A stretch of 64,000 nucleotides of DNA, taken from sequence record PX645697.1. The stretch is one strand, 5' to 3'. The position numbers were made by a program, and so were the translations under genes. The stretch's first letter is position 1; every line of letters begins with the position of its first letter. Below the pieces are notes generated by a model, which saw nothing but the letters and a program-made list of their open reading frames with translations, was not told the origin of the DNA and made no database searches. Below, one piece after another: positions 2,971 through 55,576 of the stretch. Source of the stretch: a phage.

Positions 2971-5900
2971 ATGGCGCTGTATCCAATAAAGTCACTAGGT
3001 GCTGTAGGCGTTATCGCTGATCAGGCTCCGACAGACTTAGCTCCTAATGCTTTCACTAATGCTATAAATGCTCGATTTGTTGAGCAGAGAGTATTTAAGA
3101 CGGGGGGCAATGCCCCTCTTTCTTATGTAGATGAAGACAAGGATTTAACCCCTCTGTCTTTCGTTTCTATGCCTTTCGATTATTATAGCGCAGGTAATAG
3201 CTTTCTTGTTGTAGGTACAGATAAGAAGTTATATAAACTGACAGATGAAAGCTTGACTGATATTAGCCGTAAGGTTGCTACAGTCACTAAGAAGGCTTCT
3301 GCCTCAATTAAGATTTATCCAGTTGTTTCTCAGATCGTTCCTAAAGAATCAACTATCTCAATGAACTTCAATCAGACCAAGAATCTAGAGGTTTCTCTTC
3401 TTCCTGCTGATGCTAACAATACTGATCTTATTTGGGAGGTTAGTAATTCAACCTATGGGAGTGTTACAGTAGACCCTAGTGACTCTAAGCTTGCTACTCT
3501 AACATCTTTTGAGAAAGAGGGTAATCTTGTAGTAACTATTTCTACTGCTGATGATTCTGTAGTGGCTCAGATTGCTGTTAACATTATAGATGGCGATTCA
3601 GGCATCTTCTTGAGTCAAGATACTGTTACTATCCGTAAAGGAGGGACTACTACTCTCACGGCTGTTACTGGCAAAACTCCTGTAACTTGGTCCAGCAATA
3701 ACGCTTCTATTGTATCCGTAACCCCTAACTCCAACTCTCTAACCGCTGTCATTACAGCGAATGGAGAAGGTAATGTAACAATCACTGCTGATAACGGGAC
3801 TAAGACTGCTTCTTGTGAGATTGTTTCTATCCCTCAGATTGATAGTATCTCTTTAAGCCAGTCAGATGTTACTGTGAGCAGAGGTTCTCAGTATATCTTA
3901 ACTGCTACCCTTTCTCCTGCTAACGCCCCTAATCAAAATATTACTTGGACCTCTTCTAACCCAAATATTGCAACAGTATCAGGGACTAGCACACAAGGGA
4001 CGATCAACGCTCTACTTGCTGGTTTTACTGAGATTACAGCTACCACTGAAGAAGGTAATAGAGTTGCTGTCTGTACTGTACGTGTGGATTTAGCTGGAAG
4101 GACAATGAGAACAAGTGCTATGGCATTTGCCGCTCCTGTGTCAGAGTCAGTAGAAACTCAAGAGGAAGAAGTAGTAACTCCTACTGAAAGTGAAGAGACG
4201 GTTTATTTTGCTGAGCCTACATCTGGTATAGATACGTCGGGGATGTATGAAGGTAACAACTTCTATGACTATTCTAACGTGAATGACATTGAAGGTTTTG
4301 CAAGAGCTTCTTTACTCGCAACTCCTTTGTCATCTGTAACCTTAGATATTGTCAGCGCTTCTCTTGATGTTGGTGAAGAGATTGTCATTACAGCCACAGC
4401 TTCTCCAGAGGGTGAGTACTCTTATCAGTGGTCTGTTGATAAAACTGGTTATGTTTCTACAACCTCAGTTACTGGTAAATCTATCAAACTGGTTGCTCTT
4501 CGTAAAGGGGAGATTAACGTAACCTGTACTGTCAGTCAGATGACTCAGAAAGATTACGATGCTTTTGATGACTATCCTTGGTATCACGCTGTTATCTCTA
4601 ACTGTGCAGTTGCTACAACTCACTATGAAACCCCTCAGGTAAAAGAATTCGAATCAGAATACTTTGTAGATCTTCCGGGATGGGGTGAGCAAACAGTTGT
4701 GGATAATGATGGAAACCCTTCAGTCAAGAAGTTTAACTGGAAATGTGAGAGAGTAAGATCTTTTAACAACCGTCTTTTTGCTCTGAATATGAGAGAGGCT
4801 AATGCTTCTGGTGTTACTACTAACTACCCGCTTCGTCTTCGTTGGTCTAACTTTGCCAATGAGAATAAGGCTCCTACACTGTGGGATGACTTTGCCTATG
4901 ATCGAGTTGTGTCTTCGGACTTAGCTTCTAACATCGTAGGGCAGACTCAGGCTCTAGAGAATGGGTATGCTGGTTACATTGACTTAGCAGATTCTAATGG
5001 TAGCTTGATTGATATCCTACCTCTTAAAGACTACTTGTTTGTTTATACAGAGTTTGAAACGTATATTGGTTCTCCGACTAATAACACATACCAACCTCTG
5101 ATGTTCAAGAAGCTCTTTAACGACTCTGGTATCCTTGCTCCTGAGTGTGTGGTTGAAGTAGAAGGTAGTCACTTCGTAGTTACTCAGAACGATGTAATCT
5201 TACACAACGGTGCAACCAAGAAGTCAATTGCATCTAACCGTGTCAAGAACATGCTAATTAACGAGGTGTGCCTGGTTAACCCTCTAGCAACTCGAGTACA
5301 CTTGCATCAGGATAAGAAAGAAGTTTGGGTTCTGTACGTAGGTCCGGGAGAACCAAAAGAAAGCTTCGCTTGTACTAAAGCTGCTGTATGGAATTATGAG
5401 TTTGATACTTGGTCTTTCCGTACTATCCCATATGCTCAGTGTATCGGCCTAGTTGATCCTCCTGTTTTAGAGAGAGGTCCAATCTGGTCTGACTTCCAAG
5501 AGATCACTTGGGATGACCCATCTATTAAAGAACTTGTTTGGAGAAAGGATGCAACAAACTTCAGACAGAGGGTTACGATAGTAGGTTCGTTCTTGAGGGG
5601 ATTCTATCAGGTGGATGTAGGTGCTCTTGACTATTTCTATGACAGGCTAAACGATGTTGTTATAGAGAAACCTCTGGAAATGAGGTTGGAGAGGACTGGT
5701 ATAGATTTTGATAATGTGACGAATGAGTGGAATCAGAAGCATATTAACAGATTCCGTCCTCAGACAACTGGCTCAGGTACTTATATCTTTGAAGCTGGAG
5801 GTAGTCAATTCTCAAATGAATATGGACACCCACACACATCTAAGACTTATACAATTGGTGTTGACAGGCATGTCTCGGTGAGACTGAACCATCCATACCT

Positions 5901-8847: not shown

Positions 8848-9900
8848 ATGTCTTTATTTGGAAAATCAGCTTCTAGCAAAACCACAGTGGCCCCTTCCTC
8901 TCAGGTTGATGCCCTGCTGAAGCAGATTGTTGCTAATGCTCAGAATATGCAGAACAACGATCCGGGATTCATCTCCCAACAGCTGGCTGGGTTTAATGGC
9001 AACCAACAAGGTGCTCTGAACAACTTAGCAGCTTCTACTACTCAGAAGCAATTGGCTGACATGTACACGCCTCGTACACAGCAAGGGTTGGACCAATTAA
9101 ACTCTCTTGCACAGCAGTATCAGAATATTGTCAATGGTGGTGGTCTAACTGCTGATGGTGTTAATAACTTCAGTAAAGGATTGAATAACTCAGCTCTTGC
9201 TCAAGCGACTAGTAAGGCAGCTTCCAATGTATCCCTCGGAAATGGTTCTGACTCTGGTTCTCTTCGTAGGGCTGCGGCTCAAGGGGCTGCTTTGAACAGT
9301 GCTAATACAAACTTAGCCCGTACTATCAGTGGCAAGAATATGGGAATCAGTGCTCTTCAACAAGACCAAAACTTTCAGAGGGGTTTACTTGGTGCTCAGT
9401 CAGGATTGGCTGGACAGAATCTCAATCTTGGTGCTCAAGGTGTTCAGGCAACTCAACAAGCTATCCAGAATCAACTCATGGCTGGTAATCTACAACAGCA
9501 ACAAGCCCAAGCTCAAGCTGACATTAATTGGCAGAACGCTATTGGCTCTCAACAGTATGGGTGGAATCAGCTTAACAACCAACTTAATGTATTAAACAGT
9601 GTAAGCCCGATGGCTGGGTACACAATTAAGAATGCCGCTCCGGGCATTAACACAGGACAGCAGATTCTCGGTGCTGGTATCACTGGGTTAGGTATTGCAG
9701 GTCGTATGGGTGCTTTCTCTCCTAATCAACAGACTCAGAATGCTTGGAGTTCCTATAACAACTCAGGTGGGCAATCTGGAATGGCTGGACCTATGATTGG
9801 AGGTTCTAATCTTTCTCAACAGAAAGGTCAGTCTAACTGGTTATCCACAACAGGTAATAATATCTTAGGCGGTGTCTTAGGGGCATTCGGAGCAAACTAA
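8848..9900 (+). CDS. internal virion protein candidate, Q/N/G-rich
   Basis: Track ORF; N-terminus MSLFGKSASSKTT and GFNGNQQGALNNLAAS are paralogous to the next ORF. Confidence 0.4.
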   Translation: MSLFGKSASSKTTVAPSSQVDALLKQIVANAQNMQNNDPGFISQQLAGFNGNQQGALNNLAASTTQKQLADMYTPRTQQGLDQLNSLAQQYQNIVNGGGLTADGVNNFSKGLNNSALAQATSKAASNVSLGNGSDSGSLRRAAAQGAALNSANTNLARTISGKNMGISALQQDQNFQRGLLGAQSGLAGQNLNLGAQGVQATQQAIQNQLMAGNLQQQQAQAQADINWQNAIGSQQYGWNQLNNQLNVLNSVSPMAGYTIKNAAPGINTGQQILGAGITGLGIAGRMGAFSPNQQTQNAWSSYNNSGGQSGMAGPMIGGSNLSQQKGQSNWLSTTGNNILGGVLGAFGAN

Positions 9901-25349: not shown

Positions 25350-27194
25350 TTAGTGCGTATGCATCCAGTTGAGTCCAATCTGGCAATCAGAAGCCAGAGG
25401 ACATTCCATGTTCAAATACTCACCAGCTTTCTTAACACAAAGCTCGGTGTGTTCTTTGAGTTTCTGTACATCGTTACGGTTCACTGAGAACTGGCCCTCG
25501 TCGTGCATGTCAATTACTTTAGCACAACGAACTCCATCTTTCTCAATCCATTTGTTAAGGAACATCATAGCATATTTCATAACAACAGCACCAGCACATT
25601 GCAGGAGAGTGTTAAGGGCTTTATGAACCATAACCTTTCCAGTGGCATCCCGTCTCATTGTAATCTTACGACCATCAACTCCAATCAAGTATCCTTGAGC
25701 AGCCTTCTCTGTCATACGATCAATGAGGATTGCAATACATGGGTTCTCTGCCAAGAATCGTGCTCGCATCACTGAACCTTCGTCAGCCCCACCACCTACA
25801 ATCGAACCAAGCTTAGCATCACCAGCACCATAGTTGAATGCGTAGATAAACGTCTTAGCGTTGTCACGAGTAGGAAGACCAGCAAGTTTCTGGTTATGGG
25901 AGTGGATATCACCTTCAAGAAGAATATCACGATACATAATAGCAGAAGCTAAACCACGTTCTGCCAGAGCTTTCTTAGCTGGATTATTCTCTTCGATTGC
26001 TTCAGCAAGCATATCCCTACATTCTTTAATGAGGTAGTGTGCAAGCATACGCAACTCTAATCCAGAACCATCATACCCTAAGAATACTTCTTTACCAGCG
26101 GGTATGTAATATTTGTAAGCACCTACAGGTTTGTCTTTCTTCCCCGGCTTACCTTTCTCATAAATTACGTTAGTACCTTTTCGTATATAACAACCATCAG
26201 GAACAACGTTAGTAATAACGAAAGGACGAGAGTGATCAACATCTGAGTTATAGTCAGACTCAAACAAACCGCGACACTCATGACCAAACAAACCACGGGA
26301 GGGAATATTAACCACGATACGATGTTTGAATCGAAAAGTCGGCGTAGCGCAGCTGTTAGCTTCTGCCGAAAGTTTACCATCTTCGCGTTCCTTTGCTATG
26401 AGTCCACTGATAAGACCTAGCCTGTGAGCCGCTACAACGCGTCTCTTAAGCAAACTCCCGACACTCCCTAGCTCACCCCCTAACCCTTCTTCAAGAGTCT
26501 CCTCGAGGTTTGTAGGAGCTGTAGGCCACTTGTTTGAGGTAGCTAGTGCTATCTTAATCTCATCAAAAGTGATAGGTCTACGTCGGTTAGGGTTTAAACC
26601 TAAACCAAATACATAAGCCTTCATATAGTTCTTAGTCTTAAACCTAAAATGCTTCTCTAAGAACTTCCTAATATCAGCGTCAACCATCTCGGCTGTCTGC
26701 TTCTGTTTAGCATTACCTCGCATCCAAGCTGAATACCATGCTTGGTATGTTCCATACTTTCGCATATCTTTCTTGATTTCAAAAGTATTCCAAGGCTTCT
26801 TAGATACGTTAAACTCTGGAGGAAGAAAGCCCTCATCCATAAGGGCTTCTTTAACTCGTGCATCTTTCGATGGGTCAAAGTCCACGTATTCAACACAGGT
26901 GAATGCTCCACCAATGTCTTCTCTCTTAAGACCAACTCTATCACAATAGGCTTGAGGCCACTTCTGTAAAGCTCCAGACTTCTTAAATGGCTTCATATAA
27001 GTAGAGCCATCTAATCTCATCTTAGGTAAGAGAGGAATCAGTTCTTTGTCAATATTAACAATAATCTCTTTAAGGAGGTGAACATACCACCGAGCATTTC
27101 TTCGGTTGAAACTCACTCCGTGCTTCGCTTGCTTAGAGATTATATCAGCGACAGTCATCTCTGTCAAAAATGGGAGAGCGTCCGGGTTGCTCAC
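25350..27194 (-). CDS. DNA polymerase, family A, polymerase domain only
   Basis: Motif A GYDGSGLELRMLAHY, motif B RDNAKTFIYAFNYGAGDAKLG, motif C VIDMHDEGQF; no DEDD exonuclease motifs in N-terminal part. Confidence 0.8.
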   Translation of the reverse strand: MSNPDALPFLTEMTVADIISKQAKHGVSFNRRNARWYVHLLKEIIVNIDKELIPLLPKMRLDGSTYMKPFKKSGALQKWPQAYCDRVGLKREDIGGAFTCVEYVDFDPSKDARVKEALMDEGFLPPEFNVSKKPWNTFEIKKDMRKYGTYQAWYSAWMRGNAKQKQTAEMVDADIRKFLEKHFRFKTKNYMKAYVFGLGLNPNRRRPITFDEIKIALATSNKWPTAPTNLEETLEEGLGGELGSVGSLLKRRVVAAHRLGLISGLIAKEREDGKLSAEANSCATPTFRFKHRIVVNIPSRGLFGHECRGLFESDYNSDVDHSRPFVITNVVPDGCYIRKGTNVIYEKGKPGKKDKPVGAYKYYIPAGKEVFLGYDGSGLELRMLAHYLIKECRDMLAEAIEENNPAKKALAERGLASAIMYRDILLEGDIHSHNQKLAGLPTRDNAKTFIYAFNYGAGDAKLGSIVGGGADEGSVMRARFLAENPCIAILIDRMTEKAAQGYLIGVDGRKITMRRDATGKVMVHKALNTLLQCAGAVVMKYAMMFLNKWIEKDGVRCAKVIDMHDEGQFSVNRNDVQKLKEHTELCVKKAGEYLNMECPLASDCQIGLNWMHTH

Positions 27195-49899: not shown

Positions 49900-50052
49900 T
49901 TACTCCTGTTGTTTACACTCGTCAATAACCCACTGATAAGTGGATTGCCCAGAAAAGAAACACTGAATAAATCCAGATGTTCTCTGCGTTACCAGTGCTA
50001 GTGCACAAATCACTACCGCTGCTGCTAGCAGTTTTAAATCTAATTTAGACAT
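49900..50052 (-). CDS. small membrane protein, 50 aa (not in track)
   Basis: Hand translation MSKLDLKLLAAAVVICALALVTQRTSGFIQCFFSGQSTYQWVIDECKQQE; stop 2 nt before next ATG. Confidence 0.4.
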   Translation of the reverse strand: MSKLDLKLLAAAVVICALALVTQRTSGFIQCFFSGQSTYQWVIDECKQQE

Positions 50053-50166
50053 ATTTCCTCTCATTGAATTTAAAAAAGGACTCTCCTAAAAGAGCCAAGC
50101 TTTAAATCCAAAAAAAGATATTACCCAATATCTGTGGATAACCTGCTCTTAAAATATCTATCCGAC

Positions 50167-50281
50167 GGATGTTCGAGGATTATTCCTCTCCCTAGCATCG
50201 GCCCCATACGGGAAATATATTAAGATTAGGTTAGTTGAGCCAGAATAGCTCACATAGCCCTCTGATACTCACAAGGGCTAT
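50167..50281 (-). repeat. conserved 3' element, copy A (GGATGTTCGAG, CTCTCCCTAGC blocks and 8-bp-stem hairpin ATAGCCCT/AGGGCTAT)
   Basis: Hairpin begins 5 nt after stop of gene 50287..50538; element repeated at 55248-55348. Confidence 0.5.
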
Positions 50282-50286
50282 AGATG

Positions 50287-50538
50287 TTACTCTGTGGCTC
50301 CGTCGAAGCGGAGGATTGCTGTTGGAACAGGAATCACAACCATATCAATCTCTAAACGGAAGAGATGACCCGTACTTAGCTGAACTGCTGTTACCGGTTT
50401 AGCGATACCACCAACAGATGCTGAGGGGATTCGAATAAAGAAATCCCCCGGATATTCCGTTGCACGAAATACATCTCCCGGTGACATATCCTTTACTTGG
50501 ATAATTGATTCAGGAGGGGTTTTATTAGCAATTTGCAT
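50287..50538 (-). CDS. small protein, early-region paralog family
   Basis: ...VKDMSPGDVFRATEYPGDFFIRI... Confidence 0.4.
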   Translation of the reverse strand: MQIANKTPPESIIQVKDMSPGDVFRATEYPGDFFIRIPSASVGGIAKPVTAVQLSTGHLFRLEIDMVVIPVPTAILRFDGATE

Positions 50539-53543: not shown

Positions 53544-53642
53544 CTCTCATTCAATTTGGCGCACCGTGGAGGATTCTAACCTCCAACCAATTTCTTAGAA
53601 GGAAACTGCTCTATACAATTGAGCTAACGGCGCTGGATTTGT

Positions 53643-54820: not shown

Positions 54821-54849
54821 AAAACAACAAAGGCCACCCGAAGGCAGCC
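54821..54849 (-). terminator. rho-independent terminator
   Basis: Minus-strand GGCUGCC-uucg-GGUGGCC (two G-U pairs) followed by UUUGUUGUUUU. Confidence 0.45.
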
Positions 54850-55247
54850 CTTTATTAAATCAGTTATTGTAAACCCAACCACCTTGACGTTTACGGATGT
54901 TACCCATCAGACGCAGCATGGCAGATTCAATCTTCAGAGCACCATTTGTTACTGCATCCATACGTTCAGGGCGGTTCATACGTTTGGTTGATACTTTCAT
55001 ACACATCTCTCTTTGTTAGTGGAGGCATTATTGCCAGTTGATATAAGGGATAGCCCTAGTCAGGAGGCTAATTCTGACCGCGCACTCATTGCCGACCTTC
55101 TCTGCCTAAGAGTTCAGGTTCTAGAGCTATCTCTTATCCCAACTGGTGAAGACTCCCTACCCCTAGGAAGTCTCCTGAATCCCAAACCAATATGTACCCC
55201 TACATATCGGAAATCTTTCGAAAATTAACAGGTTTTAGTCTAGCACC

Positions 55248-55348
55248 GGATGTTCGAGCAAGCTCTCCCTAGCGGTGTGGCATATGCCTGAATTAATAAG
55301 TTAATGAGGAACACCCTCACATAGCCCTCTGATAAACACAAGGGCTAT
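55248..55348 (-). repeat. conserved 3' element, copy B
   Basis: Same three blocks and ATAGCCCT/AGGGCTAT hairpin, ending 9 nt after stop of gene 55358..55576. Confidence 0.5.
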
Positions 55349-55357
55349 AAGTCGGTG

Positions 55358-55576
55358 TTACTTTTGAGTCACATGAAGATCAGGGCGAGGTGTAACAGTG
55401 GTGCCACCCTTAAAAAGACCAACATAACCAGTACGAAGATTGGCTGCTTTATGTGAACCATTATTTGCTACCTCTTCAAGCAGCAACCAGAACCGGCTAT
55501 CATAAAAGAAAACCGACCCACTTTCTAGATCACATATTTTTGAAAACTTAAGAGGTTTACCTTCATTGATTTCCAT
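55358..55576 (-). CDS. small protein, early-region paralog family
   Basis: ...ICDLESGSVFFYDSRFWLLLEE... Confidence 0.4.
   Translation of the reverse strand: MEINEGKPLKFSKICDLESGSVFFYDSRFWLLLEEVANNGSHKAANLRTGYVGLFKGGTTVTPRPDLHVTQK

Follow-up and report, generated by a model that had tools for sequence, protein, structure and literature searches.

A conserved structured RNA module at two gene junctions in the early region of a phiEco32-like phage

Two copies of a module downstream of paralogous genes

The 64,000-nucleotide stretch of phage DNA in sequence record PX645697.1 (the window, by which we mean the whole stretch that was analysed) is identified by megablast as coming from a phiEco32-like podophage of the genus Kuravirus. 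It contains two copies, A and B, of an intergenic module. The shared module is the ~125-nt 5′ part of two longer conserved and structured intergenic regions, of ~225 nt (region A) and ~350 nt (region B), and it folds on the transcribed sense strand into hairpins that we designate H1, H1b, H2 and H3. Both copies have the minus strand as their sense strand, as do all of the surrounding genes; by the gene numbers of phiEco32, copy A falls at the junction of genes 91 and 90, and copy B at that of genes 113 and 112. This early region is transcribed by the sigma-70 polymerase of the host from promoters near the right genome end, as reported for SU10 and 7-11 (PMC4281155, PMC8948821); the SU10 annotation places early promoters at 73.5–76.7 kb only, with none near the elements, and the distance from the promoters to the two copies is 5–11 kb. 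The upstream genes, encoding proteins of 83 and 72 amino acids (aa), and the parts of the module are as follows.

50287-50538, minus strand: gene upstream of copy A, 83 aa, phrog_6570-like, with an SH3-like beta-barrel fold in the model
50286-50291, minus strand: AGUAAC motif of copy A, the 5′ strand of a basal stem (from RNAalifold) that pairs with 50244-50249; the stop codon at 50287-50289 lies inside it
50253-50282, minus strand: H1 of copy A, 10 pairs, of which 6 are changed on both sides; the base UAUAGCC/GGCUAU is kept and the apex is variable
50237-50251, minus strand: H1b of copy A (GAGC..GCUC), from the centroid fold, overlapping the 3′ strand of the basal stem
50203-50212, minus strand: H2 of copy A (CCC-GUAU-GGG), with a C-G to G-C compensatory change in 11 of 33 sequences
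50162-50201, minus strand: H3 of copy A, with outer stem 50196-50201/50162-50167 (CCGAUG/CGUCGG), internal-loop strands CUAGGGA (50189-50195) and GAACAUC (50168-50174), and inner hairpin 50175-50188
55358-55576, minus strand: gene upstream of copy B, 72 aa, a phrog_6570-like paralog
55320-55362, minus strand: AGUAAC motif, basal stem and H1 of copy B; AACACC (55354-55359) pairs with GGUGUU (55310-55315), and H1 lies at 55320-55349
55306-55318, minus strand: H1b of copy B (GAGG..CCUC), read from the alignment and invariant among B copies
55279-55288, minus strand: H2 of copy B (GGC-AUAU-GCC), from the fold and the covariance alignment
55244-55277, minus strand: H3 of copy B, with outer stem CACCG/CGGUG, an internal loop as in copy A, and inner hairpin GAG-CUUG-CUC

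The initial annotation of this DNA described the element as three sequence blocks following the stop codons of two paralogous genes, and most of that description holds. Pairwise alignment shows the three blocks recurring in the same order at both sites; the 34-nt hairpin block, TATAGCCCTTGTGNNTATCAGAGGGCTATGTGAG, matches only 50249-50282 and 55316-55349 (0 matches are expected from shuffles), and exact matches to GCTAGGGAGAG and CTCGAACATCCG are found in the window only at these two sites. AUAGCCCU and AGGGCUAU do form a perfect 8-bp stem with a 12-nt loop, which RNAfold extends with wobble pairs to ~10 bp, and this hairpin starts 5 nt (copy A) or 9 nt (copy B) past the TAA stop codons at 50287-50289 and 55358-55360. 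The upstream genes are indeed distant paralogs (26% identity, E 9e-5), both matching phrog_6570 (3.6e-22 and 9.7e-17). A window-wide search with a covariance model for further copies, as had been suggested, finds exactly two, and pattern scans add none. The annotation was also right about the lack of a U-tract: GUGAG comes after H1, and AUAGAU or CUAGAC after H3, with the real terminators 65–400 nt farther downstream, and we reject an intrinsic (Rho-independent) terminator.

Two parts of the description need revision. First, both copies are real but had been given too narrow an extent: the true span of copy A is from the AGUAAC motif at 50286-50291 to the end of H3 at 50162, and that of copy B from 55357-55362 to 55244. 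Second, the first two blocks are not loose motifs but the strands of the internal loop of a covarying hairpin, H3.

Covariation, conserved helices and distribution

Folding of the two copies on the sense strand yields one architecture from differing sequences, and the module is confirmed as real and under selection. A covariance model built from 14 sequences recovered 33 distinct copies; in the resulting alignment, which is model-fitted and favours structure, and with which independent MAFFT/RNAalifold runs agree, standard pairs make up 99.0% of the 683 pair cells, with changes on both sides in 11 of the 21 pairs. An analysis of covariation in related phages had been proposed in the initial annotation. 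None of 500 shuffles reaches the observed values for four of five measures, and 3 of 500 reach the observed count of further pair types; in slid-partner controls pairing is at most 47.8%. The alignment also bears on the strand. There are 77 G·U cells against at most 7 non-standard cells, and the A·C cells among these, which could pair on the opposite strand, number no more than 3; this abundance of G·U with few A·C indicates that the folded strand is the transcribed sense strand; the genes and terminators are oriented the same way. We regard a conserved RNA structure on the sense strand as very probable.

H1 comprises an upper stem of 8–11 bp, an AUC/GUGAG internal loop and a basal stem of 5–6 bp. 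In relatives the apex is instead UUCG, UACG or CCUCCGG, with a length of 4–12 nt, and in copy B of ECBP2 a C-G pair of the basal stem is replaced by U-A, a compensatory change. The AGUAAC motif holds the stop codon in most Kuravirus copies, although in phiEco32 copy A and the 7-11-like phages it is kept while the stop codon sits upstream of it, which argues that AGUAAC belongs to the element and not to the gene. H1b occurs as GAGC/GCUC, GAGU/ACUC, GAGG/CCUC or GAGUUA/UAACUC, its fourth pair being C-G, U-A or G-C by lineage, and since it overlaps the 3′ strand of the basal stem, the two helices are mutually exclusive. Cronobacter phage GAP52 has a unit consisting of H1 and H1b only (26735-26801 of its locus, minus strand: AGUGAG..UAUAGAG..CUCUAUGUGA, then GUGAA/UUCAC), which lacks H2 and H3 and lies directly after a stop codon, upstream of an ATP-grasp gene. 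This suggests that the first hairpin is an independent, reusable signal and that H1/H1b is separable from H2/H3.

The H2 loop is RUAU in all 33 aligned sequences and UAAU (CVT22) or UAAA (Klyazma) in the Citrovirus homologues. H3 has a near-invariant 7×7 internal loop, whose strands CUAGGGA and GAACAUC are the first two of the three blocks, and an inner GAG/CUC stem with a variable cap. In its outer stem 4 of 6 pairs are changed on both sides, and six unrelated sequences (CCGAUG, CACCG, UUCGGUG, AAUAGCG, CAGCG and GCAACG) stay complementary to their partners. The layout of the loop is a 3×3 CUA/AUC portion next to the outer stem, one G-C pair, and three purine-purine pairs, a tandem G·A motif among them. 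Non-Watson-Crick covariation links the base that ends the 5′ strand to the one that opens the 3′ strand (A/G 20, C/A 11, A/A 2 and C/G 0), and the switch from A/G to C/A is seen in at least four backgrounds: copy A lineages, copy B lineages, 7-11 versus pSal-SNUABM-01, and the divergent contig L048. Together with the neighbouring G/A pair, the covarying A/G forms the 5′-GA/5′-GA arrangement of tandem sheared pairs, and the substitutions presumably follow the pattern predicted by isostericity tables for a sheared A·G pair. The loop thus resembles other tandem sheared G·A loops (hammerhead domain 2, K-turn stems and loop E-like motifs) in having 5′-GA-3′ opposite 5′-GA-3′ on a G-C-closed helix, and in A·G changing to C·A or A·A and never to C·G. 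It differs from K-turns and hammerheads in lacking a 3-nt bulge, a hammerhead core and a third stem.

The more distant homologues show which part of the loop lasts. In Klebsiella phage Klyazma H1 is nearly letter-identical and CUA/AUC is kept, but the three purine pairs are replaced by the Watson-Crick pairs G-C, G-C and A-U; in CVT22 the order of helices is kept and a small CUAC/CUC loop stands instead. The most persistent feature is therefore the 3×3 CUA/AUC next to a G-C-closed outer stem, and the purine stack, judged from these sequences, appears to behave as a helical spacer. A K-turn was rejected, as the loop is symmetric (7×7) with no 3-nt bulge and has five nucleotides, not three, before the G·A pairs. 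CsrA-type GGA loops, the sarcin-ricin motif and likeness to CRISPR repeats (Cas6f, type I-E) were likewise poor fits in a by-eye comparison.

The module is well represented in relatives: blastn finds it in 105 phage records at 205 places, mostly two per genome. With a 141-nt query of copy A (the element plus a few flanking bases) only the H2–H3 part, positions 56–140, is matched in the Salmonella 7-11-like phages, and the whole intergenic region A aligns between Kuravirus and the 7-11-like phages. Pattern scans of IMG/VR, metagenome and genome collections add more Kuravirus copies and one divergent member, L048, and more diverged homologues are present in Citrovirus-like phages; covariance-model scores are 60.6 bits for L048, 31 bits for Klyazma and 19.9 bits for CVT22. 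The model finds no full module in GAP52, including its syntenic site, and no match in Erwinia phage Pecta. Hits to the H3-core pattern in L004, L005/L013/L027/L032/L045, L022, L033/34/40/41/46 and L039/L047, and in L044, L049, L050, L051 and L056-58, lack the outer stem and have no other helices, and were set aside as chance. At the gathering thresholds of Rfam 15 only a tRNA-Arg passes in the whole window, and in permissive Rfam scans of both regions the best E value is ~1.4, with all matches far below gathering scores. A literature search returned no description of the element, the primary phiEco32 papers (PMC2587145, PMC3275717) lying outside that search.

Two of these genomes have features of their own. 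Escherichia phage EcoN5 (L053, 7029-9750) carries a tandem duplication of ~1.5 kb that comprises two genes, copy A and two genes, giving three module copies. L048 (contig JBOFGJ010000684.1) is labelled as a Flavobacterium metagenome-assembled genome, and a 446-aa protein places it with the Citrovirus podophages CVT22 and Klyazma. Within 4 kb of L048 (1978-5668) at least seven small open reading frames (ORFs) end in an acidic (D/E)EENE tail, and several resemble KGD(I/V)V SH3-type barrels. A RimK-like ligase and an amidoligase cluster are encoded in CVT22 and Klyazma, in a region that the 8 kb of L048 examined does not reach; one might speculate that the acidic tails are ligase substrates.

The homology break sits in H1, and differing upstream genes are joined to the module there. 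The module could in principle be a non-functional relic of duplication that acts only as a recombination linker, as this exchange of gene cassettes at H1 and the inclusion of copy A in the EcoN5 duplication might suggest; a relic, however, would not keep 99% pairing and compensatory changes across three phage families. Nor does a self-cleaving ribozyme fare better. Domain 2 of the hammerhead has the consensus CUGAUGA-[stem II]-GAA, to which CUAGGGA-[stem]-GAA bears a superficial likeness, but the essential hammerhead core bases are unmatched, there is no third stem, and no ribozyme family matches at E ≤10. Ribozyme or relic, we consider this explanation very improbable.

Extended regions A and B and their genomic setting

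Beyond the module, both intergenic regions contain further structure, and the features between it and the next genes are as follows.

50220-50233, minus strand: 5′ strand of helix P2 of copy A (UAACCU + UCUUAA), from RNAalifold and minimum-energy folds
50139-50152, minus strand: 3′ strand of P2 (UUAAGA + AGGUUA), overlapping the DnaA-box-like TTATCCACA at 50133-50141
50110-50132, minus strand: T1, an AU-rich hairpin with a GGGU loop followed by U7; weakly terminator-like and absent in 7-11
50072-50096, minus strand: T2, an intrinsic terminator (GGCUCU..AGAGUCC + U6) from the terminator scan; its stem covaries, and it is an annotated terminator in phage 7-11
55148-55210, minus strand: hairpins H4 (55187-55210) and H5 (55148-55175), specific to region B, each with a UAGGGGUA apical loop and with compensatory changes in RNAalifold
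55010-55147, minus strand: the rest of structured region B, which includes a long hairpin (z-score of the sense-strand fold -3.5)
54860-55006, minus strand: ORF of 48 aa after region B
54829-54852, minus strand: intrinsic terminator after the 48-aa ORF, from the terminator scan

Region A is conserved and structured throughout the ~225 nt from AGUAAC to the terminator. All 18 distinct A-type sequences form the long-range helix P2 in their minimum-energy folds, and their P2b sequences differ yet remain complementary; its second half varies among the Salmonella-type copies, again with complementarity kept. P2 encloses H2 and H3, so that copy A takes the form of a three-way junction of P2, H2 and H3. 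A P2-like closing helix for copy B is not supported in phiEco32 B.

The 3′ strand of P2 coincides in part with a perfect DnaA box, TTATCCACA, at 50133-50141 (minus strand), which is invariant in all A-type copies including those of the Salmonella phages. This box, together with inverted repeats that could be extruded or bound by dimeric proteins and a folding energy that is low on the antisense strand too, could point to an element acting as DNA, whether a palindromic operator for a DNA-binding protein, a site under DnaA control, or an origin of replication or priming signal. The box is missing from copy B, however, and its 5′ half (AGGUUA) is accounted for as the 3′ strand of P2, whose neighbouring bases covary. 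Only on the sense strand are G·U wobble pairs common, and the turnover of stem sequences with complementarity kept, like the 4–12 nt range of the H1 apex, is unlike a fixed operator. An element acting as DNA thus seems highly unlikely. Two more perfect copies of TTATCCACA lie in the window at 4698-4706 (minus strand) and 9841-9849 (plus strand), and when up to one mismatch is allowed, the 22 DnaA boxes found are no enrichment over the 18.8 expected.

In region B the module is followed by ~230 nt of covarying hairpins. The loops of H4 and H5 are the sole exact occurrences of TAGGGGTA in the window. A hairpin with a (U)AGGGGU loop is also seen just before the next ORF in Klyazma (L063, ~1945-1975) and in L048 (~3190-3225), and UAGGG recurs in the H3 loop and at 55054-55059. 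The long hairpin carries an insertion of ~60 nt (~55040-55100, minus strand) that is present in the window, phiEco32 and KBNP1711 and absent from NJ01, ECBP2, L020 and L037; the stem around it is kept in both forms.

Such conservation and structure of whole intergenic regions, beyond the module, would also be expected if they gave rise to processed trans-acting RNAs, with cleavage near H1 and termination at T2 producing stable, structured RNAs, ~190 nt long for region A and longer for region B, that titrate or guide a factor of the host or the phage during take-over. The terminator at the end of region A is strong and conserved, G-rich apical loops are repeated (UAGGGGUA twice in region B and GGGU in region A, with similar loops in Klyazma and L048), and a related Salmonella phage, pSal-SNUABM-01 (7-11-like), encodes a ProQ/FinO-family protein at 1651-2379 of its locus (L015), ~6 kb upstream of the module. 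Region A is also like the enterobacterial small RNAs derived from 3′ untranslated or intergenic regions in being a structured RNA that follows a stop codon and ends at an intrinsic terminator, and unlike them in having no Hfq-type arrangement of single-stranded seed or U-tail besides the terminator itself. The promoter scan, however, finds no promoter belonging to these regions, tblastn finds no ProQ/FinO homologue in the window, and region B runs directly into an ORF. We judge trans-acting RNAs to be decidedly unlikely.

The genes around the two regions give few clues to function. They have no Pfam hit, and their PHROG matches are only to groups of unknown function. The upstream gene is phrog_6570-like at both copies in the window, at copy B of phiEco32, and in 7-11 and pSal-SNUABM-01; it is unrelated at copy A of phiEco32 and in L048. 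The phrog_6570-like family consists of ~70-aa proteins with a confident SH3-like beta-barrel model, and it includes 74 cluster representatives at E ≤1e-3 in a profile search (a word-indexed search gave 2 hits). One member of the family elsewhere (P0008) has no module after its gene. The ORF at 49900-50064 (minus strand), which follows region A, appears to start at the ATG at 50052 and not at 50064, as judged from the PHROG alignment (residues 5–54), the length of phiEco32 gene 90 and a GAGAGGA ribosome-binding site; this start gives a 50-aa protein with a hydrophobic central stretch, whose ribosome-binding site lies directly after T2. A tRNA-Arg(UCU) at 53557-53633 (minus strand) lies in the early region between copies A and B and is conserved in phiEco32 and EcoN5; it is the only ARAGORN match in the window, with no tRNA or tmRNA at the elements.

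The module lies upstream of the same cluster of amidoligase, GATase and ATP-grasp genes in Kuravirus, 7-11-like and Citrovirus-like phages. This synteny, and the succession of a three-way junction with a conserved internal loop, a terminator and a ribosome-binding site, could indicate a riboswitch-like leader in which the junction and the H3 loop are bound by a metabolite or a protein and govern either the small ORF downstream or the cluster. In region B and in L048 the linker is predicted (single-sequence and RNAalifold folds) to pair with the ribosome-binding site downstream, but these pairings show no covariation, copies A and B precede unrelated genes, H3 loop positions change in Citrovirus, and there is no Rfam riboswitch match. 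GAP52 has the amidoligase cluster without the module, so the link between the two may be plain synteny. A riboswitch-like leader is in our estimation quite improbable.

The position of the module relative to terminators deserves closer attention. Both copies are upstream of intrinsic terminators in one operon (T2 at 50072-50096 and the terminator at 54829-54852), and no promoter is known in between: no internal promoter is annotated in SU10, and a promoter scan of the window finds no sigma-70-like site between module and terminator. Inside the elements there is no sigma-70 site with at least 9 of 12 matches on the sense strand of either one, and candidate sigma-70 hexamers are not kept in the 7-11-like copies. 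The motif of promoters dependent on phiEco32 gp36, tAATGTAtA (PMC4281155, PMC8948821), is missing from both elements, and a gp36-dependent promoter was rejected.

Terminators after both copies, with no known promoter between, make read-through of the kind mediated by the HK022 put sites a serious rival, in which the nascent H2–H3 RNA would bind the elongating host polymerase or recruit a factor, so that terminators are passed and the 20 or more downstream early genes are reached. Several points speak for it. First, there are two copies per genome in host-polymerase early operons, as with putL and putR, and they lie upstream of terminators that need to be read through. Second, putRNA is likewise built of two irregular stems side by side, the middle of stem II having non-canonical pairs (PMC9378689). 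Third, the module and T2 are conserved together and are jointly gone from the syntenic site in GAP52. Finally, the H3 loop is kept in phages that infect different hosts, which would suit a partner that is itself conserved, RNA polymerase for example. Other points speak against it. The module is ~125 nt as against ~70 nt for put, begins at a stop codon, and is 5–11 kb from promoters and not at the start of the operon; the covariance model finds nothing in HK022 at E ≤10, and there is no homology to put in sequence or structure. L048 has no clear terminator after the module, most of the H3 loop is gone from CVT22, and antitermination would leave both H1 and its position at the stop codon unexplained. 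We rate put-like antitermination as rather unlikely.

Possible role and implications

We tentatively favour, at something short of even confidence, a role for the module as a cis-acting punctuation element of the mRNA combined with a platform on which a factor docks. H1 lies where a 3′ protective or processing hairpin would sit, and with RNase III geometry of the T7 type, cleavage, or a stop to decay, would fall in the internal loop 3′ of the upper stem. The upstream cistron would be left with a protective 3′ hairpin, and the released downstream RNA could refold with H1b at its 5′ end; the predicted exclusivity of basal stem and H1b would fit such refolding after cleavage or ribosome passage. 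The near-invariance of the H3 loop calls for a specific partner, and the H2–H3 platform may dock a host protein, a phage protein or RNA polymerase itself. The docked factor would then set the fate of the downstream RNA, be it stability, read-through of the terminator 65–400 nt on, or translation of the next small ORF.

The analogy with the hairpins that punctuate T7 early mRNA, drawn in the initial annotation, fits H1 by shape but does not extend to the other two blocks, which are strands of the H3 internal loop, H3 being too short for an RNase III site. For comparison we folded five T7 early RNase III sites (R0.3, R0.5, R1, R1.1 and R1.3), using cleavage coordinates that are reportedly those of Dunn and Studier in 1983 and are not annotated in the T7 record. 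These sites fold with an upper stem of 9–10 bp, a small apical loop, an internal loop beneath and an irregular lower stem, and the predicted H1 has its parts in the same arrangement, the ~9–10 bp upper stem being capped by a small apical loop and parted from a lower stem by an internal loop. As with the T7 sites, paralogous copies lie between cistrons of an early polycistronic RNA made by host polymerase, and the expected product is an upstream mRNA ending in a hairpin. Unlike the T7 sites, the module has a lower stem of only 5–6 bp in H1, shows no sequence similarity to them, is present in two copies per genome, and adds H1b, H2 and H3 with its conserved internal loop.

Several observations weigh against punctuation, a mechanism suggested by shape and position. 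A signal of the T7 R1.1 type would have about two helical turns of duplex with the lower stem counted, and the basal stem, at 5–6 bp and with one A/C mismatch in copy A of the window, is a short one for RNase III; the module occupies 2 of ~55 gene junctions in the early region whereas T7 punctuates most of its early genes, and a plain stability hairpin would not need a near-invariant H3 loop. The upstream protein is a generic SH3-like barrel and at most a putative RNA binder. As for the folded strand, folding energy alone gives no preference to the sense strand (region B has z-scores of -3.5 sense and -4.5 antisense).

A further likeness is to the promoter-early stem-loop (PeSL) cassettes of T4-type phages, reportedly described by Arbiol et al. 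in 2010 as repeated, conserved intergenic stem-loops among early small ORFs. In both systems stem-loop units lie among small early ORFs, with neighbouring genes shuffled at the units; unlike PeSL, the module has no conserved sigma-70 promoter, occurs in two copies, and has a far more elaborate, covarying structure.

The module is a new RNA family, unusual in its composite build and of a general kind that is known, the structured element in phage polycistronic mRNA. With members in over 100 sequenced genomes and also in two other phage families, and with no entry in Rfam, it provides a concrete candidate for a processing or regulatory element. Phages like phiEco32 serve as a model of how phages control the RNA polymerase of the host and are common candidates for therapy, and to our knowledge neither processing nor read-through of internal terminators has been described for their ~26-kb early operon. 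For annotation, the stretch is to be read as a non-coding RNA structure and not as spurious small ORFs, and the "DnaA box" beside copy A as at least partly a strand of an RNA helix. The three podophage lineages with the module (Kuravirus, the 7-11-like Grimontviridae and the Citrovirus-like Zobellviridae) all use host RNA polymerase and a phage sigma factor. There is a small but real chance that H2–H3 is the core of a new class of cis-acting RNA shared by these lineages, either one that reprograms the host elongation complex (put-like, and independent of factors or using a new one) or a sensing switch linked to the amidoligase/ATP-grasp genes. If the antitermination or the sensing reading is true, the module would be a second kind of RNA in a class known essentially from HK022 put.

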